A program made the translations under genes and the position numbers. A stretch of DNA of 26,987 nt from Bdellovibrio sp. CG10_big_fil_rev_8_21_14_0_10_47_8 (GTDB taxonomy: Bacteria; Bdellovibrionota; Bdellovibrionia; Bdellovibrionales; Bdellovibrionaceae): positions 3,076-30,062 of the forward strand of contig PEZR01000005.1 of the NCBI GenBank assembly GCA_002773975.1, given 5' to 3'. Positions 5,501 to 26,986 of the stretch are shown here, in pieces. The notes beneath the pieces were generated by a model. It did no database searches. It saw only the letters and a program-made list of their open reading frames with translations, and was not told where the DNA came from. The first letter of the stretch is position 1. Every line of letters begins with the position of its first letter.

Positions 5501-6213
5501 GAGGACTCCTTTCCTTGGAGGACTCGCTGAATCCTGGCCACTTCATGAAGGTTATGGGCATTGGAACCTAATGAAATCATCGCACCAAACTCTTTGCACC
5601 AAGCATAGATTTGCCAGGGTTCAGGGTGATAGTGTGGGTTGATCTCTACGGCCACAGATTGGTCGGCAGCTTTTTGAATTAATTTTTTAAAGAGATCCGC
5701 TGGTGGCGCTGCTTTAAATCGCCGGTAAGACATGCCAAAGGGATGACCTAAGATATCCACCCGTGGATTTTCTAGAACGGCCATCGACAGACGAAATTCT
5801 CGATCGATGGCTTGTTCAGAGGTCAGCCCCCCCGAGTTTCCTTTGATGCTACCCGTTTCCCCAGGAAAACGGTGAACACTGGCCATCACAAGGTCAACGG
5901 TGTTGTAAATTTCATCACTGAGATCAAGCTCTCCAGAAAAATCAGCTACCTTTGACTCCACACCCACCAAAGCAAGGCATTGATCATGCGGAAGGCTTCT
6001 CACCGTTTGGGCAAATTCTTGAAACCAGGGACCGCTGCTTTTGCGTGCGTGTTCCGAAAATAAAATCGCGCGCAAACCTTGAGAAATGGCCTGGGCATGC
6101 ATTTCTTCCACAGAGCTTTCCCCATCGGTGAACTTGGTATGCATATGAAAGTCATAAGGAACGATATTGGAGGCGGTTGTGCTCTGCATTTCCAAAATAT
6201 ATGGGCTAATCAT
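5479..6213 (-). CDS. PHP-domain phosphoesterase (histidinol-phosphatase-like)
   Basis: DFHMHTKFTDG, FSEH, GVE, ASVH, ILGHP, VEIN, LGSNAH are PHP metal ligands. The terminal SDAH motif reads SNAH here. ATGA overlap with the legI stop. Confidence 0.85.
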   Translation of the reverse strand: MISPYILEMQSTTASNIVPYDFHMHTKFTDGESSVEEMHAQAISQGLRAILFSEHARKSSGPWFQEFAQTVRSLPHDQCLALVGVESKVADFSGELDLSDEIYNTVDLVMASVHRFPGETGSIKGNSGGLTSEQAIDREFRLSMAVLENPRVDILGHPFGMSYRRFKAAPPADLFKKLIQKAADQSVAVEINPHYHPEPWQIYAWCKEFGAMISLGSNAHNLHEVARIQRVLQGKESSWQIPVS

Positions 6214-7292
6214 TGAATCAATTCATCCTCTGTGAAATTTCGTTCAGCAACCCGCCCCAGATAAGACCAATACTCAAAAGGACTGATGCCGTTTCCAGGT
6301 CTTTTTACACCAAGGTTATTTTCTGAAAAGACCTCTCCGGCGCGAATGTCCTTGATGGCAATCAAACTTTTACGAACGATGGCCTTATTTTTTTGTTCAG
6401 AGAGGGCCGGCCTTTTTTCCGTGCTGCCCATGGCTACATCAACGTCTCGGATTGCTTTGACCATGTCCCTGAGTTCGTTGGGCTCAAGGCTGGCGGCATG
6501 ATCAGGGCCCGTCATTTTTCGGTCTAAGGTAAAGTGTTTTTCAATAATCGAAGCGCCCATTGCTACCGCTGCAATAGGAACCACGATCCCTTGAGTATGG
6601 TCAGAGTATCCGGTCGGCAAATGAAAATGGTCTCTCATTGTGATCATTGCCCGTAGGTTCACGTCTTTGAGAGGAGCCGGGTAGTCTGTCGTGCAATGTA
6701 GGAGGGTGACGCGCTCTCGCAAGAGACGCTGTCCTTCATCGGACTGAAAAGCGTTCGTAAAGCTTTCTTTCGAAGGTCCCTTGGAAGACTTGGGGGACTC
6801 CACCAGTCCAAAGGCAATGGCTTCCAAGGCATGACGGACTTCGTCCAACGTGCTCATTCCTGTAGAGACGACCAGAGGCAAACCTGACTGAGCGCTTTTT
6901 ATCAGATAGGGGGCATTGGTAATTTCGCCGGAAGGCAGTTTTAATCTAGAGACACCAAGATCATTGGCCAACAGATCAATGCTGCCCATATCAAAGGGTG
7001 TTGAAAGAAACTCAATTCCGAGTTTGAGGCAACGATCTTTGATTTTTTTAAAGTCGGCCAAAGACAATTGCCAGCGTCTTACCATATCCAGTTGGGATTC
7101 AAGCTTCTGAGTATTAACAACCTGATAATCGCACTGTGGTGCAAATTTGCTGACGACGTCTTCAGCTTTGAAGGTTTGAAATTTTACCGAGTCTGCGCCG
7201 GATTGTTTAGCGGCTTCGACGAGTTCGAGCGCTAGATCCAAACTTCCGTTATGATTGATGCCAGCTTCCGCAATGATATAGGTTTCACTCAT
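6210..7292 (-). CDS. neuB: N,N'-diacetyllegionaminate / N-acetylneuraminate synthase (NeuB family, full length with SAF/antifreeze-like domain)
   Basis: IIAEAGINHNG, VKFQTF, KLPSGE, LLHCTTDYP, GYSDHT, IEKHFT, GPDHAAS and C-terminal VKRPGNGIS. It carries the insertion (AFGL...PSKESF...SDEGQ) that I associate with LegI-type synthases. Confidence 0.95.
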   Translation of the reverse strand: MSETYIIAEAGINHNGSLDLALELVEAAKQSGADSVKFQTFKAEDVVSKFAPQCDYQVVNTQKLESQLDMVRRWQLSLADFKKIKDRCLKLGIEFLSTPFDMGSIDLLANDLGVSRLKLPSGEITNAPYLIKSAQSGLPLVVSTGMSTLDEVRHALEAIAFGLVESPKSSKGPSKESFTNAFQSDEGQRLLRERVTLLHCTTDYPAPLKDVNLRAMITMRDHFHLPTGYSDHTQGIVVPIAAVAMGASIIEKHFTLDRKMTGPDHAASLEPNELRDMVKAIRDVDVAMGSTEKRPALSEQKNKAIVRKSLIAIKDIRAGEVFSENNLGVKRPGNGISPFEYWSYLGRVAERNFTEDELIQ

Positions 7293-7375: not shown

Positions 7376-8563
7376 TTAAAGATCAAAGAATTTCTTTTTT
7401 AAAAGAGCCTGGGGGTCCTTAATTTTTTTGAGCTGATCCTTAATTTTTTGGCTTGCGGTGCCATCCCCAAAGAGATTTTCCGTCGCCGAACAATCTTTTA
7501 CGAGAGCTTCACGAACGGCCTTTTCGATGGCTTCCTCCGTGGGGGGGCAATTGATAATGGAGCTAGACTGAATGCGACCCCGCTGTCGATCTCCAATATT
7601 TACTGTAGGTTTCTTCAAAAAAGGCGCCTCGTACAAGGCACTCGAGGAATTTCCGACGACGGCGTCGACCTGTGACATTGTACTGAGATAACGAACTTGT
7701 CCCAGTGATGTATAAGCTTTGGCGTTTGGCCGGGTGGCTACAAATTCATCAACCATAGAGATTAGAATTCTTCCGTCGGTGTCTGCGTTAGGCTTTGTAA
7801 AAATTAAACCAACATCTGGCCCCAGTCTGTCCAGGGCATTCAGTAGCTCTTGGAATTGGCCAGCTGAGGTTTGGGTTTCCAGAGTCACCGGGTGAAAAGT
7901 GATCAAAATATTCTGCCGTTGCCAAGAGTAGCCCATCGATTCGGACAGTTGATCCCGCGACCACATTTGCAATCGTTTGATATAGTCGACACCCACGTGA
8001 CCGACATGGAAAATATGTTCTGGATTTTCGCCGAGCTGGCGAACTCGTTTTGCAGAGACAGCGCTATTGGTGAAATGTAAATGGGACATTTTCGTCAGGC
8101 TATGACGGATAGCTTCGTCAACAACGCCCTCTGTTGAATCCCCGCCGGAAATATGGGCAATAGGGATGCGGGCAACCAGTGCAGCTTGAGCCAGAGCCAG
8201 GAGTTCAAACCGATCACCCAGCACCAACAGGATATCTGGTCGTAGCCGATCGAGAGCTTCAGAATACCCAATGGTGCCGAGGCCCATTGATTTCGCAATT
8301 CCAATCGGGGAATCGCTGGACAAAAGCATCTCGACTTTGGCATCCAGCTGAAAACCGTCGGCTTCGATGGTCTTGTAGGTCAAGCCAAACTCGGGTGACA
8401 AATGCATTCCAGTTACTAGGACCTGCAATTGCAATTCGGGATCACCTTGGATTTCTTTCATGACCCAATAAAGCAATCCATATTCAGCGCGAGTGCCAGT
8501 GGCCACGAGAATGCGACGTTGTCGCGGGGATTTTGAAGTTGGGTTTGTGTTTGTCGGATTCAA
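7376..8563 (-). CDS. neuC: Hydrolysing UDP/GDP-N,N'-diacetylbacillosamine 2-epimerase (NeuC/LegG)
   Basis: TGTRAEYGLL, TGMHLSPEFG, LGDRFE, HISGGDSTEG, DEAIRHSLTKMSHLHF, ITFHPVT, VGNSSSA, NIGDRQRGR. TTG start at 8563 follows an AGGGGAG RBS. Confidence 0.95.
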   Translation of the reverse strand: MNPTNTNPTSKSPRQRRILVATGTRAEYGLLYWVMKEIQGDPELQLQVLVTGMHLSPEFGLTYKTIEADGFQLDAKVEMLLSSDSPIGIAKSMGLGTIGYSEALDRLRPDILLVLGDRFELLALAQAALVARIPIAHISGGDSTEGVVDEAIRHSLTKMSHLHFTNSAVSAKRVRQLGENPEHIFHVGHVGVDYIKRLQMWSRDQLSESMGYSWQRQNILITFHPVTLETQTSAGQFQELLNALDRLGPDVGLIFTKPNADTDGRILISMVDEFVATRPNAKAYTSLGQVRYLSTMSQVDAVVGNSSSALYEAPFLKKPTVNIGDRQRGRIQSSSIINCPPTEEAIEKAVREALVKDCSATENLFGDGTASQKIKDQLKKIKDPQALLKKKFFDL

Positions 8564-11243: not shown

Positions 11244-11433
11244 TAAAACCTACTCTCGAATTATTTAAGAAAGAAATCGCAGCTAATAGGAATCTTGTCA
11301 ATGAAACAGCCCGGTTGAGTATCACCCGAGGGAACCGGCATTGTCCTAATGACTTACGGCGTCGTGCAAAGCGGATGTGTTCAAGAAAAAAATGCGATAA
11401 CAAAAACGGCATTCACTGATGAGCGGAGATATT
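11244..11433. promoter_or_regulatory. Divergent promoter region between the 7-gene minus block and the 13-gene plus block
   Basis: Largest intergenic gap (190 bp to ATG 11434) and divergent orientation. It contains TTGTCA at 11295 and a CCGGTT/AACCGG inverted repeat at 11311..11338. Exact promoter elements not resolved. Confidence 0.5.
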
Positions 11434-12483
11434 ATGGCGAGATGGAAAGAAGCTCTGGTCTCACGACAAACTTCAATTCGCGAAGCAATTCAAATTCTGG
11501 ATAAAAGCGCTCTACAGATTGTTTTGGTGGTGGACGAGAACCAACGCCTTTTGGGAACCATTACCGATGGTGATGTTCGTCGCGGTATTTTAAGAGGTTT
11601 GGAACTGAGTCAGTCTGTTCAAGAAGTGATGAATCCGAACCCTACGGTGATTCGTTCCGAAGATGACCGAGAGACCATTTTGGCCACCATGAGAAGCCGC
11701 GGCATTCACCACATGCCCCTCGTTGACGACGATGGCCGACTGGTTGGCTTAGATACTCTAGATGAGTTGCTTCAGCCGCAACGGAAGGACAACCCTGTGG
11801 TGTTGATGGCTGGTGGCTTGGGAACTCGGTTGCGTCCGTTGACCGCGGATTGTCCCAAACCAATGATTCATGTTGGTAATAAGCCTTTGCTGGAAACCAT
11901 CATTGAAAACTTTTTGTCCTATGGATTTCATCGATTTTACATTTCGGTAAATTATAAGGCTGATGTGGTGAAGTCATATTTTGAAGATGGTTCTAAGTGG
12001 GGCGCCAATATTCAATATTTGCATGAAACACATAGCCTCGGAACGGCTGGCGCATTGAGTTTGCTGCCAGAAACGCCGGAACTCCCCATGCTGGTCATGA
12101 ATGGGGATGTGCTGACAAAGGTAAACTTTGCTCAACTTTTGAATTTTCATTCCAAAAAACAGGCCATGGGAACAATGTGTGTGCGGGAATATGACTTTCA
12201 AGTGCCCTACGGAGTCGTGGAAATTGATAAACACCGCATGTTGGGGATCACTGAAAAGCCCATTCAGAGATTTTTTGTTAATGCCGGGATCTATGTTCTT
12301 GATCCAGCGGCCCTGCAGTTTGTGGCGCAAAATACTTTTTTTGATATGCCGACCTTATTTGAGAAACTGATGGAGAAGAAAAAGGAAACGATTGTTTTTC
12401 CCGTTCGAGAATACTGGCTCGATATTGGACAGATGTCTGACTATGACCGCGCCAATGGCGAGTACAAGGAATTTTTCCCATGA
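11434..12483 (+). CDS. CBS-domain nucleotidyltransferase (LegX/PtmE-type glucosamine-1-P guanylyltransferase family)
   Basis: N-terminal CBS pair (LLGTITDGDVRRGIL), AGGLGTRLRPLT..CPKPM, LGTAGAL, NGDVLT, NAGIYVL, EYWLDIG. ATG 11434 after GGAG is preferred over 11419. Confidence 0.9.
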   Translation: MARWKEALVSRQTSIREAIQILDKSALQIVLVVDENQRLLGTITDGDVRRGILRGLELSQSVQEVMNPNPTVIRSEDDRETILATMRSRGIHHMPLVDDDGRLVGLDTLDELLQPQRKDNPVVLMAGGLGTRLRPLTADCPKPMIHVGNKPLLETIIENFLSYGFHRFYISVNYKADVVKSYFEDGSKWGANIQYLHETHSLGTAGALSLLPETPELPMLVMNGDVLTKVNFAQLLNFHSKKQAMGTMCVREYDFQVPYGVVEIDKHRMLGITEKPIQRFFVNAGIYVLDPAALQFVAQNTFFDMPTLFEKLMEKKKETIVFPVREYWLDIGQMSDYDRANGEYKEFFP

Positions 12484-13175
12484 AATCTTCTGTTGTTGCG
12501 TTGATTTGTGCGCGTGGGGGCTCTAAGGGTTTGCCCGGCAAAAACATTCGCCCCCTGGCAGGAAAACCTTTGATTGTTTGGGCCATTGAGCAAGCGCGTG
12601 CGGTTTCTCGGGTTCAAAGGGTTATTGTGTCTACAGATTCCGAGGAAATTGCAGAGATTGCGCGGGGAGCAGGGGCAGAGGTTCCATTTATGCGCCCTCC
12701 GGAATTGGCGAGGGATGACAGTCCCGAATGGCTGACCTGGCGTCATGCCATGAATTTCTTGAAAGAAACCGATGGCGCTTATCCAGATCGGTTTATCGTC
12801 GTTCCAGCGACGGCGCCCCTGCGGAGCGTTTCTGATCTTGAAAAGTGTTTAGACGAGTATGAAAAAGGCGGGGCGGATCTGGTGATTACCGTCACGGAAG
12901 CACATCGAAATCCTGCCTTCAATATGGTGAAGGTGCTCGAAGATGGATGCGTTGGACTGGTGATGCCTCAGAGTTTGATCAGTCGCCGTCAAGATGCCCC
13001 TAAGGTCTATGACGTGACCACGGTGGCCTATGTTGCTCGTCCAGAGTTTGTTATTCACAAGAACAGTTTGTTCGAAGGAAAAGTTCGTCATGTGTGTATT
13101 CCTGCCGAACGAGCTTTGGATATCGATACCCCCTTGGATTTTAAAATTGCAGAATGTCTAATGGCACATCGATGA
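12480..13175 (+). CDS. neuA: CMP-nonulosonate synthetase 1 (NeuA/LegF/PtmB)
   Basis: ICARGGSKGLPGKNIR, VSTD, VPFMRPPELA.D, PATAPLR, DIDTPLDF; ATGA overlap with the upstream gene. Confidence 0.92.
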   Translation: MKSSVVALICARGGSKGLPGKNIRPLAGKPLIVWAIEQARAVSRVQRVIVSTDSEEIAEIARGAGAEVPFMRPPELARDDSPEWLTWRHAMNFLKETDGAYPDRFIVVPATAPLRSVSDLEKCLDEYEKGGADLVITVTEAHRNPAFNMVKVLEDGCVGLVMPQSLISRRQDAPKVYDVTTVAYVARPEFVIHKNSLFEGKVRHVCIPAERALDIDTPLDFKIAECLMAHR

Positions 13176-14650
13176 ACAACGAGCGGTTGCCAATTTTGGT
13201 GGTGTGCAATTCACGCCATCATTCAAAAACACAGATTCATTTGGCAGAATCATTGGCAGATCGAGATTCCAGAATATCTGTTTTTGTCCTTTGTGAGGCG
13301 GCCGACATTGACTGGTTTAAAAAGACAGTTTCTAGCCAAAACACTCAGGTCCTATCAATTGATCAGGAAGCTCCAGTCGCCGAGAGGAATTTTTCTGTTG
13401 TTAAAGAGAAATCTCTTTCTGAAAAAATGTTTTCTTTGGCCTTAAAGCTCAACCAGAGGCTCACCAGATCTTCAAAATTTCTTCAACAGTTTGCAAGGCT
13501 TGTTCGAGAAAGCTCATTGATCTGTCTTTGGAGACAAAGACGAAATCGAAAATTTTTTGTTGGAAGGATGAAAAAAGTCGACAAAATATTCAGTCAAATT
13601 CATCCCTCAGTGGTGTTTTCTTTCGGTGATCGTCACTTGGATATTGAGGCCGCAGTCCTGATGGTGGCGCACGCACAGGACATTCCTGTGATCTGTCCCT
13701 ATTGCACTTATCATGGGGTGGAGGGACTATTGAAGATCCGACAGCTTCAAGGGGAGCCCAAGCGGTGGTGGCCATTCTCAGTTTATCGAACAATCGTTGG
13801 CTGGTATCTTCCCGGACAGGTCAGACAGGGATATTTCTATCAACCCCCAAGCATCACCATGGCTGTTCATTCCTTGGGAGGTCTGTCTAAAAACCCATGG
13901 GTTTTTGGGAATGGATTGTCCGATGTTGTTTGTGTTGACAACGAGTTCACCGAAAAAAGGTATTTGGCAGAAGGTGTTCCATCAGCAAAACTGCGTGTTG
14001 TCGGCGACGTTTCTTATGATGTTATCTTTGAGCAGTTTGTACGTAAAGAGAAGCTTCGGCAGGAGATTGCTCAAGAGTACGGCTTGGACGCCGCTAAAAA
14101 AACTTTGATTTTTGCCCTTCCACAATTTGCGGAACAAGGTGTTATGGGTTGGGACCAACACTGGCAGGAGATTCGTCTTTTGACCCAACAAGCTGTCGAT
14201 AGTGGCTTCAATGTTTTGATTTCTTTGCACCCACGGGTCAATCCCCAGGAGTATGAATTTTTAGAGAGAGATTTCGCAGTTCATGTCTCTCGACGTCCGA
14301 TGAAGGAAATTTTGCCGGTGGGGGATGTCTTTTTAGCGATCAACTCGAGCACTGTTTTTTGGGCTGTTTTGTGTGGCATCCCGTCGGTGATTATTGATGC
14401 TTATGGCCTGAGTTCAGTCCCCTTTGAACATCTAAAAACAGTTCGACTGGTGAATGATCCACACCGCTTGAGCTCAGAAATCATAAGAGCTGTCGAAGAG
14501 GGCTTGCAACATCAGGAGAACCTCAAAGAGGACTGGAAAAACCTTTCTCGGGAAAAGGTTTTTGATGGTAAGGTCACCGAGCGATATTACGATATTGTAA
14601 CAAAAGGAACTTCACGTGTGCGGAATCCTTGGCGCAGTCCCGGCAATTGA
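13172..14650 (+). CDS. Putative GT-B glycosyltransferase, candidate legionaminic-acid transferase
   Basis: ATG 13172 overlaps the neuA stop (ATGA). GVPSAKLRVVGDVSYD, LISLHPRV (HP motif), FLAINSSTVFWAVLCGIPSV resemble sialyl/CDP-glycerol transferase-like GT-B C-domains. Confidence 0.6.
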   Translation: MNNERLPILVVCNSRHHSKTQIHLAESLADRDSRISVFVLCEAADIDWFKKTVSSQNTQVLSIDQEAPVAERNFSVVKEKSLSEKMFSLALKLNQRLTRSSKFLQQFARLVRESSLICLWRQRRNRKFFVGRMKKVDKIFSQIHPSVVFSFGDRHLDIEAAVLMVAHAQDIPVICPYCTYHGVEGLLKIRQLQGEPKRWWPFSVYRTIVGWYLPGQVRQGYFYQPPSITMAVHSLGGLSKNPWVFGNGLSDVVCVDNEFTEKRYLAEGVPSAKLRVVGDVSYDVIFEQFVRKEKLRQEIAQEYGLDAAKKTLIFALPQFAEQGVMGWDQHWQEIRLLTQQAVDSGFNVLISLHPRVNPQEYEFLERDFAVHVSRRPMKEILPVGDVFLAINSSTVFWAVLCGIPSVIIDAYGLSSVPFEHLKTVRLVNDPHRLSSEIIRAVEEGLQHQENLKEDWKNLSREKVFDGKVTERYYDIVTKGTSRVRNPWRSPGN

Positions 14651-16457: not shown

Positions 16458-17725
16458 AACCAAAGGTCATTTTTTTCGCACCGATCCTAGAATACCCTCC
16501 AGCCGGGGGCCCACAAATGAGCGTCACCAATGCCGTGAAAGCTCTCAGTGAAGTTTCACAGCTTCACATTATCACCACTGTTCCAGAAAGTCGTCTGGGC
16601 CCAGAGGCACAGGCCTTTTTTAAAAGCAAATCCCACGCCTTGGTGTTTGCACCCTCAAGCACCTTTAATTCAAATCATCCCCTGGGAGATCGTATTCTTC
16701 GCAAGGTGCGAAGACTGATTTCCCCGTTGCTTGCTTTGGCAGATGTGCGATTTACCGTTGAATATGCTAGAAAATATCAAATTGAAATCTTCTGGGTGGA
16801 TCGTGTTTTAGAATACACTTTCTATGTTTTTCAACAGCTGCGACGAAAAGAGCCCCGGGCTTATGTCATCGGCGATACCTGCTCGGTCTATTCTCGTTTT
16901 GTTCTTCGTGAGTTGCCATTGATCAAGAACCCCATTCGTCGCTGGTGGGTGGAGCAACGGGGTCGAAAAAAGATCCAAGAAGAAAAAGAGCTGACAGAGT
17001 TCGCTAATGTTGTGACGGCTGTTTCAGAGCTCGATGCCGAGTATTTTCGTTCCATCGCCCCTCGTCCTCAGACAATTAAGTTGTTCTCTAACGTAGTTGA
17101 TTTGTTGGATTACAAGACCCACGTGCCAGCCCCGGCCTCACTGCAAAAGCCCTATGTTTTATTGATGGGGGTGTTCGGTCATAAGAACAGTCCCATGGAC
17201 CGTGCAGCGAAATGGTTGGTGGAAGAAATCATGCCGCTGGTTTTGTCTGAAGTTCCAGATGCACGTTTGTATATTGTGGGAAAAAATTCAGATCGGACTC
17301 TGGCACACTATCAAAGCCCATCCGTCGTTGTTACCGGTCGAGTGCCCTCGATGCTGCCGTATTTGCAGGGTGCTAGCGCAACACTTGTTCCTTTGATGTA
17401 TGAGTCAGGAACTCGATTCAAAATTTTAGAGTCTGGAGCTGCGGCAATCCCCTGTATCTCGACAACACTGGGAGCCGAAGGCATTCGAGTGACAGACAAA
17501 GAAAATATCATCATCGCCGACAATACGGTGGATTTTGCGCGAGCTATTGTCGACATTTTTAAAAATCCTGAGGCAGCAAAGAGTCTGGGACAAAATCTAC
17601 ATACTTTGGTGAAAGATCAATATAGCATTGAAACTCAAAAAAGAGATGCGGACACCGTCCTTCAATTTCTTCATGGGACAGGAAAAAGTGCCCGCGATCC
17701 GGGTGCGGAGATGAATTCTCCGTGA
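16445..17725 (+). CDS. Glycosyltransferase family 4 (GT-B, retaining)
   Basis: YPPAGG near the N-terminus; GRVPSMLPYL, VPLMYESGTRFKILESGAAAIPCISTTLGAEGI (GT4 EX7-type motif region). ATG 16445 is preferred over 16391. Confidence 0.85.
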   Translation: MENLKPKVIFFAPILEYPPAGGPQMSVTNAVKALSEVSQLHIITTVPESRLGPEAQAFFKSKSHALVFAPSSTFNSNHPLGDRILRKVRRLISPLLALADVRFTVEYARKYQIEIFWVDRVLEYTFYVFQQLRRKEPRAYVIGDTCSVYSRFVLRELPLIKNPIRRWWVEQRGRKKIQEEKELTEFANVVTAVSELDAEYFRSIAPRPQTIKLFSNVVDLLDYKTHVPAPASLQKPYVLLMGVFGHKNSPMDRAAKWLVEEIMPLVLSEVPDARLYIVGKNSDRTLAHYQSPSVVVTGRVPSMLPYLQGASATLVPLMYESGTRFKILESGAAAIPCISTTLGAEGIRVTDKENIIIADNTVDFARAIVDIFKNPEAAKSLGQNLHTLVKDQYSIETQKRDADTVLQFLHGTGKSARDPGAEMNSP

Positions 17726-18969
17726 TTTCGGCGAAACCTTTTTCTTCTTCTAAACGCTATATTATTACCAATTTTGCCTATGGATTTGGCCCTTTTCTAA
17801 GAACAACAGAAATGGCCTTGGCGACGGCGGACCTGCTGAAAAAAGTCACGCAGCAGGATTTCAACATTATTGTGCCCTGGGTTTATGGCGAGCCTCAAAA
17901 GCGTATTTTGTTGGAAGAGTTTGGAGACGTTCTGCGCGAACGTCCTGATGCCATTTTGCTCGATAAACGAATTGGAGCGCAGCTTGAGCTCATCTTTTAC
18001 GGGGAAAAAGGTTACGAGGAGTCGCTCAAGTATTTTTATCACAATCATGAACGCGTGACCGATGCGATCAATCAGTACATTGACAATGGAATTGTCGCCG
18101 AAAACATGGCCGGAGATCCGATCGATATCGCCAAGTCTGAGATTGCCATGTGTATCAGTCGGGCACCTCGAGTTTATTTTGATATTGAGCCTTCTTATTA
18201 CACCAGCTTTGGTTACATTTCCGAGATTTTGGAACGCAGTTTGGGTGTGCCCGAGGTGGCTTGTGATCAGGAGCTTGCGGAGAATCTTATTCCTCTGTTC
18301 GTAGAGATCGAAAAAAAACATCGGCTTCATTTTATCGCTGAACCGGGGACCTTTAGTTACCTCGAGAATCGGCAGCCTCGATACAACACTGAAATTATGA
18401 CCCCTCCGAATGCTCACCCCCCCAAAGATCCTGATTGTGTGGACGTGGAGCGAGGAATTTATGTGACGGTCACTGGAATTCCGGGTTTGGAGCGTTTATT
18501 CAACGAGGCTCAGCGTCTTGGATTTCGTTTTTATTCCAATAAGGCCAATTGTGTACCTGATTCTATTCGAGCGCTGCCTCACATCTTAAAGTGTCCAAAT
18601 GTTGCCTTGCACTTTGCTCGGGCTGGTTGGGGTTCCATTTGGTATTCTCTTTTTTCAGATGTTCCCTTGGTTGTTCCCAAGTATGACAAATCGGACGACC
18701 CTGAAATCTATTTCAATAATCTATGTTTACAAAAGTTGGGGCTGGGAGTCATTTACGACCGGCAGCCTTTGCCGGAGCTCTTTAAGTACACTGACAGCTA
18801 TCGTGCCGCAGCAGCGCGCGAGAAAAATCGCCTTCGGAGCGCCTATGGAACGATCAACGGTGTTCGATACACCGCTGAAAAAATTGTCGAAGATTATGTG
18901 CAGATGGAGCTGTCATTGCGTGGCCTTCGTGGGTCGAATCTATCGACGTCGTCACTGCTCAAACAATGA
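17722..18969 (+). CDS. Hypothetical GT-B fold protein (GT28/PseG-like)
   Basis: GTGA overlap with the GT4 stop. N-terminal YGFGPFLR resembles PseG IGFGHIKR. C-terminal FARAGWGSIWYSLFSDVPLVVP and N...LQKLGLG resemble MurG/GT28 C-domains. Confidence 0.55.
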   Translation: MISAKPFSSSKRYIITNFAYGFGPFLRTTEMALATADLLKKVTQQDFNIIVPWVYGEPQKRILLEEFGDVLRERPDAILLDKRIGAQLELIFYGEKGYEESLKYFYHNHERVTDAINQYIDNGIVAENMAGDPIDIAKSEIAMCISRAPRVYFDIEPSYYTSFGYISEILERSLGVPEVACDQELAENLIPLFVEIEKKHRLHFIAEPGTFSYLENRQPRYNTEIMTPPNAHPPKDPDCVDVERGIYVTVTGIPGLERLFNEAQRLGFRFYSNKANCVPDSIRALPHILKCPNVALHFARAGWGSIWYSLFSDVPLVVPKYDKSDDPEIYFNNLCLQKLGLGVIYDRQPLPELFKYTDSYRAAAAREKNRLRSAYGTINGVRYTAEKIVEDYVQMELSLRGLRGSNLSTSSLLKQ

Positions 18970-19052: not shown

Positions 19053-20024
19053 ATGACCAAAATCATCGTTGAAATTTGCCAGAATCATAGCGGTAATCGG
19101 GAAACATTTGCCAAAATGATCGAGTCCGCAGCTCGGAGCGGAGCAGATTACGTTAAGATGCAGTCGATTTTCTCGGAAGATCTGACAATGAGGCCTCGCT
19201 TTGAAGACGGCGAAACCCTGGCCGACGGAACTGTGAAGACAATTAAGCGTCCCTATGGGGCCGAGAAATCAAGGCTTTCCAAGCTTGATTTGACCCTCCA
19301 AGATCATGATTTTTTTATCAGCAAGTGCAAAGAGCTCGGCGTGATTCCGATGACGACGATTTTTTCTCGCCATCGAATTCCGGAAATTGGGGCCTTGGCA
19401 TGGCCAGAAAAAACCATCAAGGTTGCAAGTTATGATTGTGCAAGTTGGCCCATGCTGAAGGAGCTGGCGGCGCATTTTGACCGTTTCATTATTTCTACGG
19501 GTGCGATGGAGGATCAAGAGATCATAAAGACCGCCGAGTTGATGAAGAGTCTTGGAAAGGGGTTCACCTTTCTTCACTGTGTGACATGTTATCCAAATAC
19601 CATGGAAATGTGCCATCTTTCGCGCATGGATTGGCTGAGGACACTCACTCCACTTGTCGGTTGGTCTGATCACAGCTTGGTCGAGCGAGATGGAATTACG
19701 GCCAGCAAGGTGGCCATCATGTTGGGTGCTGATTTTATTGAACGTCATTTTACTGTGAATACAAAAAATGAAACGAAAGATGATCCAATTTCCATTAATC
19801 CTGCTCAGCTTAAAGAGCTCAGTGATTTTCGACGGCTATCCAAAGATGAACAGAAACAGCAGATTGAAAAAAGCATTCCTGAATGGAAAACTCTTTTGGG
19901 GGAAAGTCGTCGTCGTCTGAGCCAGGCTGAACTCTTAAATCGAGACTACTATCGCGGTCGTTTTGCGAGCCCCGGTGGAAATGAAACCTGGGTTTATAAC
20001 TGGGAAGAAAAGAATCTTTCCTAA
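19053..20024 (+). CDS. NeuB-family ulosonic acid synthase lacking the C-terminal SAF/antifreeze-like domain
   Basis: IIVEICQNHSG, VKMQS, KVASYD, FLHCVTCYP, GWSDHS, IERHFT, KDDPIS. It ends shortly after LNRDYYRGRF with no KRPG-containing domain. ATG 19053 is preferred over TTG 19041. Confidence 0.9.
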   Translation: MTKIIVEICQNHSGNRETFAKMIESAARSGADYVKMQSIFSEDLTMRPRFEDGETLADGTVKTIKRPYGAEKSRLSKLDLTLQDHDFFISKCKELGVIPMTTIFSRHRIPEIGALAWPEKTIKVASYDCASWPMLKELAAHFDRFIISTGAMEDQEIIKTAELMKSLGKGFTFLHCVTCYPNTMEMCHLSRMDWLRTLTPLVGWSDHSLVERDGITASKVAIMLGADFIERHFTVNTKNETKDDPISINPAQLKELSDFRRLSKDEQKQQIEKSIPEWKTLLGESRRRLSQAELLNRDYYRGRFASPGGNETWVYNWEEKNLS

Positions 20025-20029
20025 GTGAC

Positions 20030-20048
20030 CCCCGTTTTAAGAACGGGG
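20030..20048 (+). other. GC-rich hairpin between neuB2 and neuA2
   Basis: CCCCGTT-TTAAG-AACGGGG: perfect 7-bp stem, 5-nt loop, starting 6 nt after the stop. Only a weak ATTTG tail, so terminator function is uncertain. Confidence 0.45.
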
Positions 20049-20067
20049 ATTTGGGTGTAGTGAAATC

Positions 20068-20859
20068 ATGACAAGAATCGTATCGGCTCAAAAATCGTCA
20101 ACATATTCTCACAAAGGGAAGTCCCTGAGGATTCTAGCGATTATTCCGGCTCGTGGTGGCTCCAAAGGAGTTCCAAGGAAAAATCTCCGACCCCTCGGAG
20201 GCGAGCCGCTTTTATATTATATGCTGAAGGCCGCAATGGAGGCACAGACCCTCACCAGAGTCGTAGTGTCTACTGAAGATGACGAAATCATGCAGGTCGC
20301 CGAAAGTCTTGCGGGGAAAAATGTTGTCATCCGACGACCACAAGAGCTCGCCCAGGACGTTTCGGCGGATGCGCCGATGCTTCAGCATGCTGTTCGTGAG
20401 GTTGAAAAGTTAGATGGAGTGACTTTTGACTATGTTGTGCAGCTTCATGCAACGACCCCATTTTTTACAGCCCAAGATATTGATCAGGCTTTGGGTCTTG
20501 TTTTGGCAGATCCTGCGGCAGATTCTGTGGTCAGTGTTTTTCAGGTAAATAGCTTTCACCCGTCCAAGCTAAAACAGATCTGCGGAAATCGATTGCAACA
20601 GTACGTCGAGCAGTTCGAAGAGAAAACAACATCCCGCCGCCAGGATTTTCATCCGGTTTACAAACGCAACGGTGGTCTTTATGCCACCAAACGAGAGGTC
20701 GTGATGAACTGGGGACGTGTATGGGGAGATCATGTTATTCCCTATGTGATGCCTGACTACAAATCTCTTGAGGTAGATTCGCCGATCGATTTTTTCTTGG
20801 CAGACCTGCTGATGAAGCACCTCAAAGGACATGCAAGTATTGAGGAGGCGATAAAATAA
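20068..20859 (+). CDS. CMP-ulosonate synthetase 2 (NeuA/KdsB-like cytidylyltransferase)
   Basis: IIPARGGSKGVPRKNLR, VSTEDDEI, RRPQELAQD, LHATTPF, KRNGGLY, EVDSPIDF. Confidence 0.9.
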   Translation: MTRIVSAQKSSTYSHKGKSLRILAIIPARGGSKGVPRKNLRPLGGEPLLYYMLKAAMEAQTLTRVVVSTEDDEIMQVAESLAGKNVVIRRPQELAQDVSADAPMLQHAVREVEKLDGVTFDYVVQLHATTPFFTAQDIDQALGLVLADPAADSVVSVFQVNSFHPSKLKQICGNRLQQYVEQFEEKTTSRRQDFHPVYKRNGGLYATKREVVMNWGRVWGDHVIPYVMPDYKSLEVDSPIDFFLADLLMKHLKGHASIEEAIK

Positions 20860-21299
20860 TGATTGAACGTATTCAGCACTTAGATAAAGAACTAGCTTTG
20901 ATTGTCCGACATTCTTTTCGTAAAGAGGGGATTGAATTCTTCACTCCGAATACCTATTCGCAACAAATAGGTTATATGAATCGTCCGACTGGGTATGTTA
21001 TCGCACCCCATGTCCACAATGCTGTTCCTCGCGAAGTTCAGTTCACCAAAGAAGTTCTGTTGATAAAGAGCGGTCGCTTGCGAGTGGATTTCTATTCTGA
21101 TTCTCAGGAATACCTGGAGAGCACGATTTTATTTGCGGGGGATATCATTTTGTTGGCCTTCGGAGGTCATGGTTTTGTGATGTTGGAGCCGACCGAAATT
21201 ATTGAAGTGAAGCAGGGGCCTTACGCTGGAGATCAAGATAAGACCCGATTTGAACCAGTTGAGGACGCCAAGGTGAAATTGAGGAAGGGAAATTCCTGA
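20859..21299 (+). CDS. Cupin-fold protein
   Basis: IAPHVHN...EVLLIKSG (cupin motif 1) and GDIILLAFGGHGF (motif 2); TAATG coupling to the upstream stop. Confidence 0.75.
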   Translation: MIERIQHLDKELALIVRHSFRKEGIEFFTPNTYSQQIGYMNRPTGYVIAPHVHNAVPREVQFTKEVLLIKSGRLRVDFYSDSQEYLESTILFAGDIILLAFGGHGFVMLEPTEIIEVKQGPYAGDQDKTRFEPVEDAKVKLRKGNS

Positions 21300-22048
21300 T
21301 GAGTTCAGTTTTTGATTCCTACGGCGCTTATTACGATCTTCTTTACGGTGATAAAAACTATGCTGCTGAAGTCGAGTATATTGATAATTTGCTTAAGCGG
21401 TATGGAAAAGACACTCGTCAAATTATTGAACTGGGAGCAGGGACCGGTATTCATGGGTCCCTTTTGGCAGAAAAAGGGTACAAAATAAATGGCATCGAAT
21501 TGAGTTCTCAAATGGTTGCCAGAGCGAGAGTCTCGTCGGGATTTTCAATTCAACAGGGGGATATTCGCAGCTTACGTTTGAATCAGACTTTTGATGCGGC
21601 TATTTCTCTCTTTCATGTCTTGAGCTATCAAGTGACCAATGAAGATATCTTGGAGACTTTAAAGACGGCGCATCTTCATCTGAGACCGGGAGCTATTTTT
21701 ATTTTTGATTTTTGGTATTCGCCGGCTGTTTATTCACAACGACCCGAAAGTCGCGTGAAAACGATGGAAAATGCTCAGGCAAAAATCACCCGATGGGCAG
21801 AGCCAAAAATCTATGCCAATGAAAATCGGGTTGATGTGCAATACAAAATTCATGCAGAAGAGATTCAGACCCGAAAAACCGATGAGTTTTTCGAGACTCA
21901 TTCGATGCGGCACTTTTCTCTTCCAGAAATTGATCTGCTCGCGACGGCAACTGGTTTTGAGCGGATTCAAGCCGAGGAGTTTTTAACCGCGGCTGCGCCG
22001 AGTGAAAATACTTGGGGAGTTTGCGTAGTATTGAGGAGACGGCCATGA
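21299..22048 (+). CDS. Class I SAM methyltransferase, TylM1/DesVI-like
   Basis: YYDLLYGDKNYAAEV, IIELGAGTGIH, GIELSSQMV, QQGDIR, FDAAISLFHVLSY, HLRPGAIFIFDFWY; TGATG coupling. Confidence 0.85.
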   Translation: MSSVFDSYGAYYDLLYGDKNYAAEVEYIDNLLKRYGKDTRQIIELGAGTGIHGSLLAEKGYKINGIELSSQMVARARVSSGFSIQQGDIRSLRLNQTFDAAISLFHVLSYQVTNEDILETLKTAHLHLRPGAIFIFDFWYSPAVYSQRPESRVKTMENAQAKITRWAEPKIYANENRVDVQYKIHAEEIQTRKTDEFFETHSMRHFSLPEIDLLATATGFERIQAEEFLTAAAPSENTWGVCVVLRRRP

Positions 22049-23169
22049 GCGAAGAATTTATTCCGGTCAATACTCCGCTGTTGAATGGCAACGAGGAAAA
22101 ATATCTGTTGGATTGCATTCGCACCGGTTGGATCTCATCAGAAGGCCCATTGATCAAAAAATTTGAAGCACAGTTTTCGGCCCAGGTTGGAAGAAAACAT
22201 GGCATCGCAGTCAGCAATGGCACGGCTGCCATCGATGCCGTCATAGAAGCTTTAAATTTGGGACCTGGGGATGAGGTTATCCTGCCCACATTCACAATTA
22301 TCTCTTGTATCTCTCAGATCGTTCGTTCCGGTGCCAAACCGGTCTTAGTGGACAGTGACCCGGTCACATGGAACATGGACGTGGCGCAGGTAGAGGAAAA
22401 AATTACTCCCAGAACCAAGGCGATCATGCTGGTTCATATTTATGGTTTACCAGTAGATATGGATCCGCTTTTAGCTTTGGCAAAGAAACATGGATTGAAG
22501 GTGATCGAGGACGCAGCAGAAATGCACGGACAAACCTACAAAGGAAAGCCTTGTGGAAGTTTTGGCGACATCAGTATTTTCAGTTTCTATCCGAACAAAC
22601 ACATCACTACGGGAGAGGGTGGAATGATCGTTACTGACGACGATCAGCTGGCAGAGGATTGTCGCAGTCTGCGCAACCTCTGTTTCCAACCTCAAAAACG
22701 CTTCGTGCACGAGAGGCTTGGTTGGAATCTACGGATGACGAACATTCAAGCTGCCTTGGGCGTAGCCCAGTTGGAGCGGCTCGATGAGTTTATAAAATTG
22801 AAACGAAAAATGGGATTATTATATACTGAGCTATTTTCAGGTCGGTTGCCGGATGTGCAGTTGCCTCTTGCTAAAACAAGTTATGCGGAAAACATCTACT
22901 GGGTTTATGGTCTCGTGGTGGATGAAAAGAGGGGTTTCGATGCCGAAGAGATTATTCGAAGACTGGGGGCAAAGGGTGTTGGATGTCGACCTTTTTTCTA
23001 TCCCATGCACCAGCAGCCAGTATTAAAGAGGATGGGTCTTTTTGAGAATGAAAGTTACCCTGTCGCTGAGAGAATTTCAAAACAAGGATTTTATATTCCC
23101 AGCGGTTTGGCGCTGACGGAGCAACAAATACACCGCGTGGCGGATGTCGTGATGAAAGAGTTAACATGA
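22045..23169 (+). CDS. PLP-dependent DegT/DnrJ aminotransferase, GDP-perosamine synthase-like
   Basis: GWISSEG, AVSNGTAA, VHIYGLP, IEDAAEMHG, FSFYPNKHITTGEGGM (PLP lysine), GWNLRMTNIQAALG. ATG 22045 follows GAGGAG and overlaps the upstream stop (ATGA). Confidence 0.88.
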   Translation: MSEEFIPVNTPLLNGNEEKYLLDCIRTGWISSEGPLIKKFEAQFSAQVGRKHGIAVSNGTAAIDAVIEALNLGPGDEVILPTFTIISCISQIVRSGAKPVLVDSDPVTWNMDVAQVEEKITPRTKAIMLVHIYGLPVDMDPLLALAKKHGLKVIEDAAEMHGQTYKGKPCGSFGDISIFSFYPNKHITTGEGGMIVTDDDQLAEDCRSLRNLCFQPQKRFVHERLGWNLRMTNIQAALGVAQLERLDEFIKLKRKMGLLYTELFSGRLPDVQLPLAKTSYAENIYWVYGLVVDEKRGFDAEEIIRRLGAKGVGCRPFFYPMHQQPVLKRMGLFENESYPVAERISKQGFYIPSGLALTEQQIHRVADVVMKELT

Positions 23170-24923
23170 ACACCAATTCAATCAGTGAAAAGATAAAACA
23201 GCTCATTAGAACAAAGTGGATACTCCGTTTTGTTCTTTTTCCATTTGTGCGGCCAAAGCGTTTTATGGATGAGTTCGTTTGGGCGTTGTGTGATTTTTGG
23301 ACCTTTCGAAGTTCGATTAAAAACTATTTGAGTTTTTTACGTCGCGACCCACCGTCAGCTGAAAATAAACCTGGCCTTTTGATTGTTGCGGGTCGGGGAA
23401 TGAACACTCAGTGGTGCCAATTGTGGGCTGTGCTGGGGGCTGTATTTGCAAATCGCACTCATCGTGTTTTTGTCCTCACATCTAGAAATCAACCCATGTT
23501 GAATCTGTATTTTCGTATCTTTGGTTTTGATTTTATTTTTCTAGAAGACCTAAAGATCTCCACCGTCATTGTTCCTCAGTCAGCCCTTGATCAAATCAAT
23601 GGGCTAGAGTCCTTTATGGATTTCAAGACCTTTAAACTGGACGGCGCTCCTTTGGGGTCGATGGCAATGTCGACATATAGTCGCACCAAAGTGACAGGCG
23701 TCATCGATATTCAGGATGCTCAGACGCGGGAAGAAGTTCGAGCTTGGTTGGTCTTTATCTATCAATCTGTTGTGGCTTCCAAACAGCTGTATCAAAAGAA
23801 CAACATTGATATGCTCTTCTTCACTGAAGTGTTTATGGAAGAATATGGGGCTTTCTACTATGGAGCATTGGACATGGGCCTGAATGTCATCCGCTTCGCT
23901 GGAACGGTCCGAGACAATGCGGTGATAGTCCAGCATTTGACCAAGGAAAGTGACCGAACTCACCATGCGGCGGTGACATCACAGAGTTGGAGCCAGATTG
24001 TGGATGCTCCAGACTCCAAACAAATTGATCTTGAATTGGAACGAAATTTTCTGGATCGGTATGGGGATGTTTGGGCCATGTCGACACGCAATCAACCCAA
24101 CACAAAAATTGTCGACCCTAAAGTTGCCAGAGCAGAGTTGGGGATTCCCTCGGATCGAAAAATGGGGGTTATTTTTAGTCATATTTTGTACGACACACTC
24201 TTTTTTATCGGAGAGGATCTGTTCCCCAGTTATGCGGATTGGTTTGTAGAAAGCGTAAAGGCCGCCTGTGCTAATCCAAATATTGAATGGTTTGTTAAAG
24301 TTCATCCTTCCAATTTGTGGCGCGGAGAGCTTGAGCAGTTCTTCGGTGGGAAATACGAAGAAGTTCGATTGATCGAGAGATTTGTTGGTCCCTTACCCAA
24401 ACACGTTCACATGGTTTACCCAGACACACCCTATAGCCCATATACCTGGCTTCAGATGACTGATTATGGAATCACTGTTCGTGGTACGTCAGGAATTGAG
24501 CTGGGTGCTTTGGGAAAAACTGTGATCACGGCGGGGAGCGGTCGATATGAAAAAATCGGTTTCACGGTCAACCCAAGGACCTCTGCCGAATACATGGAGT
24601 TATTAAAGTCACTGCCGAAGGCTCCGGAGCCCAGTATTGAGCAAAAACGTCTCGGAGTTAAGTTTGCCTATATGACATTTTGTATGAAGCCGTTTACCTT
24701 GGACTTTCTGAAACCAGTACCAAAATTCGGAAAAACTCGAATATTCGGAACTGATGATTTGGTCTATCGGGGAAATTTTCCAGAATCCATGACCGAATTG
24801 CCGGCTTCCGTGGAAAGATTTTTTCGTTGGAGTTTTAACAAAGAATCTGTCGATTTTTTAAACGATTGGCCCGTTCAACCTAAGGAGTTTCACCATGGCG
24901 CTGTTTCAACATCAAATCTTTGA
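23166..24923 (+). CDS. Capsule-biosynthesis (KpsS/KpsC-like) GT-B protein, candidate ulosonic acid transferase
   Basis: C-domain WFVKVHPSN and YGITVRGTSGIELGALGKTVITAGSGRY follow the Capsule_synth pattern (K.HP ... T..ST.G.E....G.PV...G...Y); ATGA overlap. Confidence 0.65.
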   Translation: MNTNSISEKIKQLIRTKWILRFVLFPFVRPKRFMDEFVWALCDFWTFRSSIKNYLSFLRRDPPSAENKPGLLIVAGRGMNTQWCQLWAVLGAVFANRTHRVFVLTSRNQPMLNLYFRIFGFDFIFLEDLKISTVIVPQSALDQINGLESFMDFKTFKLDGAPLGSMAMSTYSRTKVTGVIDIQDAQTREEVRAWLVFIYQSVVASKQLYQKNNIDMLFFTEVFMEEYGAFYYGALDMGLNVIRFAGTVRDNAVIVQHLTKESDRTHHAAVTSQSWSQIVDAPDSKQIDLELERNFLDRYGDVWAMSTRNQPNTKIVDPKVARAELGIPSDRKMGVIFSHILYDTLFFIGEDLFPSYADWFVESVKAACANPNIEWFVKVHPSNLWRGELEQFFGGKYEEVRLIERFVGPLPKHVHMVYPDTPYSPYTWLQMTDYGITVRGTSGIELGALGKTVITAGSGRYEKIGFTVNPRTSAEYMELLKSLPKAPEPSIEQKRLGVKFAYMTFCMKPFTLDFLKPVPKFGKTRIFGTDDLVYRGNFPESMTELPASVERFFRWSFNKESVDFLNDWPVQPKEFHHGAVSTSNL

Positions 24924-25579: not shown

Positions 25580-26725
25580 CTAGGAGAGCTCCTTCAAAAC
25601 AAATTTAACCCGATCGATCACAAAATTTTGTTCGTCACTGGTCATACCAGTTGAGCAGGGGAGGGTGAGAATTTGACTCCAAATTCTGTCACTCACATTC
25701 ATATCTGTTCGTGGGGCTTCGGCATAGGGCGCCTGTAGGTGGGTAGGTCGCCAAAATGTTCTGGCAGCAACCCCCTCAGCAACGAGCTTCTGACAGACTA
25801 CCCTTGTATCCATTTCTGAATTCAACAAAACTCCGGGAAACCAGCAGGCGCTTTGGGACCACGTTGGTGATGGAAACATTTCAACGCCGCCAAGGGATCT
25901 AAAGCCCTCGCGGTAGTTTCGATCGATTTGACGTTTTCTTTCTAGAAAAAAATCAAATTGCTCCATCTGAGCACAGCCAAGAGCAGCTTCGATATTGCAC
26001 ATACGGAAATTGAATCCGACGGCATCATGAACGTAGTCGGCTCCAACCCTTGCCGTGGTGGCCAGATGTTTCGCGCGGGCGAGCAGATCTTTATCATTGC
26101 CGATCACCATGCCACCGGATCCGGTGGTGATGGTTTTGTTGCCATTGAAACTCAACGTAGAAAGCGTCGCTAAGCCACCGATCTCTTTACCCTTGTAGGT
26201 CGCCCCCAGGGCCGCGGCGGCATCCGCCACAACAGGCAGGTCATATTTCTTGGCGATGGCACAGATTGGATCCATGTCCGCACAGAGACCCAAAGTGTAG
26301 ACCGGAAGAATACAAGAGATACGGCGTCCAGATTTTTTGTGAACTAATTTTCCCGATGCGAAGACAGCTTCCGCGCTCAGAGCTTCTTCCAATTTCTGAG
26401 GACAGAGGGTCCAACTTTCCGGAGAGACATCAATGAGCCAGGGAGTGGCGCCCGTGTGGCTGATTGCATTTGCAGTCGCAATAAATGTGAATGATGGAGT
26501 GATGACCAAATCATCACGTTGGACGCCGAGGGTCGTCAGAGCCAGCTGTATTGCCGTTGTTCCAGAAGAAGTAGAAACCCCCAAGGATGATTGTGAACGA
26601 GCAGCAACCATATTTTCAAATCGATCGACGAAAGGGCCAACGGAGGAAACAAAATTTGTCCGAATACATTCGATCAAATATTTTTCTTCATTTCCAGAGA
26701 GATTAGGGATGGCCAGAGGGATCAT
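25580..26725 (-). CDS. legC: LegC-family PLP aminotransferase (nucleotide-4-keto-6-deoxy-GlcNAc 4-aminotransferase)
   Basis: IPL..P...GNE.KYL..CI...FVSSVGPFVDRFE, SSGTTA, DAAAALG, SFNGNKTITTGSGGM, VGFNFRMCNIEAALG. Confidence 0.8.
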   Translation of the reverse strand: MIPLAIPNLSGNEEKYLIECIRTNFVSSVGPFVDRFENMVAARSQSSLGVSTSSGTTAIQLALTTLGVQRDDLVITPSFTFIATANAISHTGATPWLIDVSPESWTLCPQKLEEALSAEAVFASGKLVHKKSGRRISCILPVYTLGLCADMDPICAIAKKYDLPVVADAAAALGATYKGKEIGGLATLSTLSFNGNKTITTGSGGMVIGNDKDLLARAKHLATTARVGADYVHDAVGFNFRMCNIEAALGCAQMEQFDFFLERKRQIDRNYREGFRSLGGVEMFPSPTWSQSACWFPGVLLNSEMDTRVVCQKLVAEGVAARTFWRPTHLQAPYAEAPRTDMNVSDRIWSQILTLPCSTGMTSDEQNFVIDRVKFVLKELS

Positions 26726-26728
26726 TTT

Positions 26729-26986
26729 TTATAACCCTTTGGAGAAATAATGGGTTTGGTACCAATCATATGTTTTTTGAATACCTTGGGCCAAAGTGGT
26801 TTGCGCAGAAAATCCGACCAAACGATCAGTCAGGGACATATCTGGAGCTCGTCGTGACGGAGATCCTGGTTGAGCTTCCAGCTCCTTTAGGGGAGCTGAC
26901 TTTTTAACGATGGATAGGACCGCTTCGCCGACTTCGCTCATGGAGACTTCGGGAGCCTGGCGTCCTAAGTTGAGAACTTGGTTTTT
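26729..26986 (-). CDS. C-terminal part of an extended SDR epimerase/dehydratase (5' end outside the window)
   Basis: The frame is open to the window edge: KNQVLNLGRQAPEVSMSEVGEAV...GSPSRRAPDMS...VGFSAQTTLAQGIQKTYDWY, a typical extended-SDR C-terminus. Confidence 0.8.
   Translation of the reverse strand, partial: KNQVLNLGRQAPEVSMSEVGEAVLSIVKKSAPLKELEAQPGSPSRRAPDMSLTDRLVGFSAQTTLAQGIQKTYDWYQTHYFSKGL

Follow-up and report, generated by a model that had tools for sequence, protein, structure and literature searches.

A short NeuB-family synthase with a conserved tail in place of the SAF domain, and the gene cassette in which it recurs

The present analysis concerns P0001, a short synthase of the NeuB family encoded at 19053..20024 (+) in a 26,987-nucleotide stretch of Bdellovibrio sp. 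CG10_big_fil_rev_8_21_14_0_10_47_8 (assembly GCA_002773975.1, contig PEZR01000005.1, positions 3,076 to 30,062 of the forward strand), the whole of which is called the window below. Judging from its sequence, P0001 is probably a functional, metal-dependent, phosphoenolpyruvate (PEP)-utilising synthase of the aldol type, and belongs to a distinct and widespread subfamily of the NeuB superfamily that has no SAF (antifreeze-like) domain. Most likely it condenses PEP in the synthesis of a non-classical ulosonic acid, which is possibly dicarboxylic and is activated with cytidine monophosphate (CMP). Sialic-acid-like sugars shape the recognition of microbes by hosts, by phages and by each other. To our knowledge, only a few types of their synthases (Neu, Leg, Pse, Kdn) have been studied, the well-studied bacterial ones all depend on SAF, and the surface chemistry of ultra-small bacteria and archaea, among which the short enzyme recurs, is almost unknown.

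A short subfamily with its own C-terminus

P0001 comprises 323 residues (19053-20021), followed by a TAA stop codon at 20022-20024. Its sole Pfam match is NeuB PF03102 over residues 22-258 (149.1 bits, cut-off 22.1), and its AlphaFold2 (AF2) model has a predicted local distance difference test (pLDDT) score of 94.3 and a predicted template modelling score of 0.92. A TTG codon at 19041 was considered as the start and rejected, as homologues begin with MTKII, matching the ATG at 19053. The earlier note on this DNA had described a NeuB paralogue that keeps the catalytic barrel and lacks the antifreeze-like domain, and rightly so, for the Pfam scan gives no match to SAF PF08666 in P0001 and does find this domain in NeuB1, the canonical NeuB/LegI-type synthase of the window that served as comparator (6210..7292, minus strand; TIGR03569 479 bits; PF08666 34 bits). 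The two proteins are 27% identical. In NCBIfam, P0001 stays far under the cut-offs of the NeuB equivalog TIGR03569 (135.3 bits, cut-off 399.65) and the PseI equivalog TIGR03586 (118.8 bits, cut-off 340.25), and no LegI-specific model is among its results.

The catalytic domain, a TIM barrel of residues 1-269 (19053..19859, +), is delimited by the alignment to N. meningitidis NeuB (NmNeuB), by the invariance of its residues and by VIA-align, which places model residues 1-269 on chain 19-273. It is the same barrel as in the NmNeuB structures (PDB 1XUU, 1XUZ, 2WQP; Z 28.5, root-mean-square deviation (rmsd) 2.4 Å over 247 residues, 28% identity), sharing with them metal histidines, PEP-binding lysines and serines and catalytic glutamates, and in both cases the synthase gene lies beside a cytidylyltransferase gene. 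The metal ligands H207 and H232 correspond to H215 and H236 of NmNeuB and are invariant in 35 homologues. The other correspondences are E7/N11/H12 to E25/N29/H30, K35/Q37 to K53/Q55, K123/S126 to K129/S132, S148 to S154, Y180 to Y186, S205/H207 to S213/H215, E230/H232 to E234/H236 and D243 to D247. Thus the two metal histidines and the motifs E-x-x-x-NH, KxAS and HC...YP, previously reported as intact, all align to NmNeuB residues, and the PEP-binding and catalytic set (E7, K35, K123, S126, S148, S205, E230) is identical. Two conservative swaps, E134 of NmNeuB to D128 and N184 to T178, are both invariant in the subfamily; in addition, G133 of NmNeuB is Tyr in P0001.

That P0001 represents a natural short subfamily, as the earlier note had proposed, is borne out by where its homologues end. 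The best 120 homologues among 5.8 billion proteins are 306-341 residues long and 59-76% identical to P0001, match PF03102 only, and cover 90-100% of the query (nearly all of them 98-100%). A search of 1.84 billion representatives without length limit returned 84 clusters at E <= 1e-30, all of at most 340 residues, and in that search barrel-only proteins of about 270 residues and SAF-bearing proteins score only under about 120 bits. Not one of these 120 homologues or 84 clusters extends into SAF. All 77 genomic copies (from the 80 loci described below) terminate 20-41 residues past the point where the linker motif NRDYYRGRF begins, P0001 itself 28 residues past it (N296), and the mean column identity in a 35-member alignment is 66% across phyla. 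Truncation or frameshift of a SAF-bearing enzyme was rejected as an explanation because close homologues share length and endpoint and none continues into SAF. Two long open reading frames (ORFs) of 442 and 447 residues (in L056 and L060) run on directly from an upstream 2-hydroxyacid dehydrogenase ORF, and are taken to be upstream-start artefacts of ORF calling and not fusions. We call the subfamily 'tail-NW' and define it by a length of about 306-341 residues, the motif NRDYYRGRFA, a terminal NW(E/D), Asp at the position of E134 and Thr at that of N184; P0001 has every one of these features.

Two parts of the protein set the subfamily apart from NmNeuB. One is a conserved C-terminal tail of 54 residues, 270-323 (19860..20021, +), recognised in the alignment, the AF2 model and the genomic copies, which stands where NmNeuB has its SAF domain with Arg314, and whose letters had been quoted correctly beforehand. 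In the model it forms helices 264-274, 278-281 and 291-301 and then a small hairpin (304-307/313-315); its core of E293, N296-A305 (NRDYYRGRFA), N316 and W317 is invariant in the 35 homologues, giving the pattern E-LLNRDYYRGRFA...NW. The other part is an enlarged beta2-alpha2 loop, residues 39-80 (19167..19292, +). The alignments, in which query residues 4-106 face NmNeuB chain 22-114, make this stretch about 10 residues longer than in NmNeuB, as had been surmised from the long run of residues after KMQS. Invariant in it are D43, R47, F50, G53, G59, R66, P67, E71 and R74, arginines among them. Both loop and tail are modelled as ordered, with pLDDT of 80-98.

In canonical NeuB, LegI and PseI enzymes, the SAF domain supplies Arg314 to the active site of the partner subunit, and in NmNeuB this residue binds the N-acetyl carbonyl of the substrate, the pocket is lined by Phe288, and the C6-OH of N-acetylmannosamine (ManNAc) is touched by Asn74 in the beta2-alpha2 loop (PMC11339185). 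That the domain and Arg314 matter in NmNeuB is stated in PMC11339185, which cites Joseph et al. 2013 and 2014 (the 2013 paper for the abolition of activity by loss of SAF or of R314), in agreement with the earlier note on the need for this domain and its Arg. It is plausible, on the model and as the earlier note had suggested, that the tail or the loop of P0001 takes over the job of SAF: the invariant tail and the enlarged arginine-rich loop would close over the active site and set the orientation of the sugar, as SAF does in NmNeuB.

Among solved structures, the top sequence match to P0001 is B. subtilis SpsE (PDB 1VLI; 83.6 bits, aligned through query residue 306), which is also the sole structure whose linker and early SAF superpose on the model tail (1-323 on 16-344, 279 residues, rmsd 3.0 Å). 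SpsE differs in having a full SAF domain, and we know of no established substrate for it. HMMER aligned YRGRFAS to the first strand of this domain, and because of this alignment and the SpsE superposition the modelled tail is best read as a retained linker, a first SAF-like strand and a short cap. The best barrel superposition is given by the SAF-less 'NeuB' of Leptospira borgpetersenii (PDB 6NCS, about 285 residues; Z 29.4, rmsd 2.7 Å, 245 residues), for which no function was found in the literature. It shows that barrel-only NeuB proteins fold alone. It is, however, of a different lineage (23-24% identity to P0001, E 8.6e-14), and its alignment ends at model residue 273, leaving the NRDYYRGRFA...NW tail unmatched.

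In a quick maximum-likelihood tree (IQ-TREE, 110 sequences, unrooted, no characterised LegI included), of which only splits with support 99 were used, such a split separates the tail-type proteins, P0001 among them, on a side of 69 rows, from the rest. The class labels of the tree were set by regular expression and are crude, so that many 'other' rows are tail-type and some 'barrel' rows may be fragments. On the opposite side lie further barrel-only lineages and a SAF-bearing clade (support 99) containing NeuB1. Nested in the tail-type clade is a barrel-only group (P0208 and 11 representatives) of about 265-280 residues whose end lies exactly at ...RGRFA, the terminal NW hairpin being lost; the group may have been reduced further, or some of its members may be fragments. 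Since barrel-only groups fall on both sides of the split, the absence of SAF typifies several lineages.

Carriers of the short NeuB are mostly Patescibacteria, from which type of genome the closest homologues of P0001 also come; others are Elusimicrobia, Rhodothermales, Acidobacteriota, Scalindua, Prochlorococcus, Nitrospina, Thaumarchaeota, Methanomicrobiales and Woesearchaeota. At E <= 1e-40 the gene was not found in the genomes of 30 relatives (7 from its genus, 11 from its family, 12 from its order), of which 24 have a completeness of 90% or more. Such a patchy, island-like distribution is common among genes of glycan islands. Within the window, GC content varies little (42-50%), and composition gives no sign of recent transfer there.

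The bare fact of a SAF-less NeuB is already known, both from 6NCS and from PMC8208679. According to the latter, about 30% of 13,941 nonulosonic acid (NulO) synthases in UniProt are without SAF, cluster together, come from environmental organisms and often have Asp at 134. P0001 fits that description, and the notion that a NeuB without SAF is in itself unusual does not hold. The 'tail-NW' subfamily with its tail and cassette is not defined in PMC8208679, nor is a function tested there. In the literature searched, we found no description of the subfamily (its invariant tail, its enlarged loop or an assayed member) or of its cassette, so that, as far as literature searches reach, these are the undescribed part.

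The cassette around the short synthase

In 80 related loci (L001-L080), tblastn was run with the window proteins, and neighbouring ORFs were clustered de novo and annotated with Pfam and NCBIfam; 49 of the loci extend 6 kb or more to either side of the short NeuB and are counted as complete. The commonest gene order is CBS-fused 6-dehydrogenase, GT-B protein, short NeuB, cytidylyltransferase and D-2-hydroxyacid dehydrogenase. A cytidylyltransferase lies near the synthase in 44/49 complete loci, and in the whole set it is on the same strand in 72/80 and within 3 kb in 60. The CBS-fused nucleotide-sugar 6-dehydrogenase is found in 40/49 complete loci, and a 2-hydroxyacid dehydrogenase or a LarA-type fusion in 22/49.

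The 6-dehydrogenase, of about 575 residues with an N-terminal CBS domain, is present in 58/80 loci (e.g., L053:10966-12690, L011, L016). It retains the catalytic Cys motif GGxCLxKD, and its best equivalog matches, far under the cut-offs, are UDP-ManNAc dehydrogenases. It accompanies the 2-hydroxyacid dehydrogenase in 25/26 loci. In the thaumarchaeal loci L067 (10001-12910 region), L075 (10946-12910) and L078, a LarA-type racemase domain fused to the cytidylyltransferase replaces the 2-hydroxyacid dehydrogenase; these nickel-pincer fusions have 654-686 residues and match Lar_N with 185 bits and malate-racemase-family models with 225-242 bits. Less regular companions are a BFO_1060/Glyphos_transf-like protein of about 455 residues (32/80 loci) and a canonical NeuB nearby (14/80 loci).

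The remaining position of the cassette is filled by one of four partner types, which together account for 45/49 complete loci and 65/80 loci overall. These are the GT-B family o415 (40/80 loci; about 41/80 when counted as adjoining the synthase), the GT-B family c9 with a GLGHxKR motif (12/80), a ManC-like nucleotidyltransferase, c14, usually with a haloacid dehalogenase (HAD) phosphatase (9/80), and an AP_endonuc_2 barrel, c32, whose best NCBIfam match is the CbiR phosphodiesterase (4/80). The o415, c9 and ManC-like partners co-occur in none of the 80 loci, and the two GT-B families are remotely related (hhalign probability 87.6%). One step of the pathway thus seems to have been replaced by non-homologous enzymes. 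All of the mutually exclusive partners might act in freeing a sugar from its nucleotide; equally, the GT-B proteins may be transferases. NCBIfam gives no PseG match for the GT-B partners, and profile and fold searches of PDB list for them only GT1 transferases and MurG. That PseG is not among the matches listed does not exclude it, and the hydrolase role is here an inference.

The proposed sugar acid and its alternatives

As we see the pathway, P0001 would condense PEP with a free aldose to a 3-deoxy-2-ulosonic acid, and the adjoining cytidylyltransferase would activate this acid as a CMP-sugar for a surface glycan, while the aldose would come from the CBS-fused 6-dehydrogenase and would be freed from its nucleotide perhaps by the GT-B partner. 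Tentatively, we propose that the substrate is an anionic aldose, likeliest a hexuronate or N-acetylhexosaminuronate, and the product a dicarboxylic non-2-ulosaric acid. A 6-dehydrogenase yields a carboxylate. The 2-hydroxyacid dehydrogenase and the LarA-type racemase both act on an alpha-hydroxy-carboxylate, which points to a second carboxylate, and the invariant R47, R66 and R74 sit in the loop that reads the sugar C6 in NmNeuB. It is this combination of a 6-dehydrogenase, two unrelated enzyme types for alpha-hydroxy-carboxylates and C6-loop arginines that suggests a substrate of the hexuronate type. It is possible, if rather doubtful, that the cassette as a whole builds a CMP-activated 3-deoxy-non-2-ulosaric acid from hexuronate and PEP. 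The Arg-rich tail and loop would then have evolved to bind the extra carboxylate, replacing SAF, and the acid would add a fourth class to the CMP-activated sugars of the nonulosonic type, used on the surfaces of Patescibacteria, ammonia-oxidising archaea and marine bacteria. Literature searches on bacterial nonulosaric acids gave nothing specific, the papers on 'ulosaric acid' treating only Dha of plants. New CMP-ulosonic acids are reported in the SugarBase preprint, but they are others than the one proposed here.

Several observations weigh against this picture of tail and pathway. MAFFT, opening a gap of 40 columns, puts RGRFA on the GR motif at the C-terminal end of SAF, where HMMER places it on the first SAF strand; we tentatively prefer the latter placement as it is gap-free. 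The tail is modelled in a single subunit. The o415 GT-B protein resembles GT1 transferases generally and could be a glycosyltransferase and not a hydrolase; furthermore, it has Pro where c9 carries the GT1/PseG-type His. The CBS-dehydrogenase is absent from the window and from 9/49 complete loci, and the genome as assembled (81.5% complete) contains no orthologue of it, its members of the dehydrogenase family being only ordinary ones of 462 and 466 residues with 28-29% identity, one of them about 1 kb past the window.

Of the other substrates that can be imagined, the one favoured by the earlier note, a hexose that bears no N-acyl group at C2, is unlikely, although it has several points in its favour. 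Such a hexose would be neutral or amino-deoxy (of the mannose, rhamnose or perosamine type) and, tailored in the window by the adjoining cupin, methyltransferase and aminotransferase, would lead to a Kdn- or Leg-like nonulosonic acid. Together with SAF, P0001 has lost Arg314, the residue that binds the N-acetyl carbonyl in NmNeuB, and the window, devoid of the CBS-dehydrogenase, has a cupin, a methyltransferase and a LegC-like aminotransferase directly downstream and gmd in the locus; the ManC-like partner of 9 loci points again to mannose. However, P0001 keeps all the invariant arginines of a subfamily that has the 6-dehydrogenase in 40/49 complete loci, and is 67-72% identical to enzymes of 6-dehydrogenase cassettes (L001-L003), which argues for a shared type of substrate. 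Moreover, the downstream tailoring genes are not kept with the synthase elsewhere, and the UDP-ManNAc dehydrogenases, nearest to the conserved one, act on an N-acetylated sugar. Still less probable is a 9-phosphate-type synthase, taking a hexose 6-phosphate and followed by a phosphatase that acts on the product. By description, human NANS and the B. thetaiotaomicron KDN9PS are alike in that they are NeuB-family enzymes using an anionic, 6-phosphorylated aldose, with the region of the beta2-alpha2 loop implicated in reading its distal group, and the invariant arginines of loop and tail would suit a phosphate; PMC8208679 likewise ties this loop to the phosphate in the human enzyme. Human NANS has an antifreeze-like domain, though one without the conserved Arg (PMC11339185). 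As to the phosphatase, an HAD protein adjoins the synthase in about 10 loci, but it is found in just 8/49 complete loci, almost always with the ManC-like gene, and thus is rare in the cassette and lacking in the window; the conserved 6-dehydrogenase and 2-hydroxyacid enzymes would be left unexplained.

Two further explanations deny P0001 a reaction of its own. It could be a redundant second Neu/Leg synthase sharing the substrate of NeuB1, being of the NeuB family with intact catalytic residues, and 14/80 loci do carry a canonical NeuB as well. This is highly improbable in view of the 27% identity to NeuB1, the separate tree branch, the equivalog scores (135 bits against a cut-off of 400 for TIGR03569, 119 against 340 for PseI), the cytidylyltransferase and partner genes of its own and the missing R314. 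Alternatively, it could be an inactive paralogue decaying after the loss of SAF, a thought to which the inactivity of NmNeuB without SAF or R314 (PMC11339185, citing Joseph 2013) gives rise. We consider this scarcely credible, as the mean column identity is 66% across phyla and neither the tail nor the catalytic residues vary, 77 copies have a constant C-terminus, the AF2 model is confident and ordered, and the operon context is conserved.

A probably active synthase is the reading that we retain, with an anionic, hexuronate-type substrate as its tentative part. On the model, the 'tail-NW' subfamily may embody a second widespread way of completing the NeuB active site, and it is the mark of a pathway to CMP-sugar acids that is unstudied in ultra-small bacteria and archaea. 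Once defined, the substrate would extend the glycan alphabet by a new sugar, would give an annotation rule for many genes mislabelled 'N-acetylneuraminate synthase', and would offer a natural test of the purpose of the SAF domain.

The cassette in the window and its surroundings

The window holds the core trio only, namely GT-B protein, synthase and cytidylyltransferase, in the commonest order. The upstream partner is an o415 protein resembling GT1/GT28 (17722..18969, +; AF2 pLDDT 92.9; Z 21-22 to YojK, OleD and GtfD), for which no Pfam or NCBIfam family was matched. It has G-x-G-P-[FY]-L-R near its N-terminus, where c9 has G-L-G-H-x-K-R with an invariant His, and so it may use a different mechanism or be no classical GT1/PseG-type catalyst; it is either a nucleotide-sugar hydrolase or a transferase. 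The downstream partner is a CMP-sugar-acid cytidylyltransferase (20068..20859, +; CTP_transf_3 87 bits; PseF model 137 bits, cut-off 205.7).

Between P0001 and this gene, the clean stop and the hairpin behind it that the earlier note had seen are both present, the hairpin (20020..20055, +; -17 kcal/mol, z -3.2) overlapping the TAA codon in the intercistronic RNA. A U-tract is missing, and the hairpin was not called as an intrinsic terminator. Without the U-tract, a role in stabilising the RNA between the cistrons or in translational coupling is likelier than one in termination. It ends 13 nt ahead of the cytidylyltransferase start.

The genes that follow, from 20859 to 24923, are specific to the version of the cassette in the window and are not conserved with the short NeuB at other loci. 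They encode a WbuC-like cupin (20859-21299, +), an S-adenosylmethionine-dependent methyltransferase (21299-22048, +), a LegC-family-like aminotransferase (22012-23169, +) and a protein of 585 residues without family match (23166-24923, +). A 2-hydroxyacid dehydrogenase is not found in the window. An ordinary nucleotide-sugar dehydrogenase of 465 residues (TIGR03026, 247 bits) lies about 1 kb past the window end (G000:C157:30778-32175; L086:717-2114, minus strand), accompanied by GT2 and GT4 glycosyltransferases, and is a possible local source of uronate. The sugar of the window may hence be a modified variant, as the trio with cupin, methyltransferase and aminotransferase and without CBS-dehydrogenase suggests, or its uronate may be supplied by the 465-residue enzyme.

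Beside the trio, the window has a separate legionaminic-type module at 25580-26986 (-), 6210-8563 (-) and 11419-13175 (+). It comprises a LegC-family aminotransferase (415.1 bits, cut-off 420), a dehydratase fragment at the window end, NeuC/LegG (448 bits), NeuB1 with its SAF domain, a CBS-nucleotidyltransferase and a first cytidylyltransferase. Two routes to CMP-sugar acids are therefore encoded in this locus, as in 14 of the 80 related loci. Downstream of one cytidylyltransferase lies a protein of 498 residues (13154-14650) with weak matches of the Glyphos_transf/BFO_1060 type, and downstream of the other lies the protein of 585 residues mentioned above; both are candidate transferases for the CMP-sugars.

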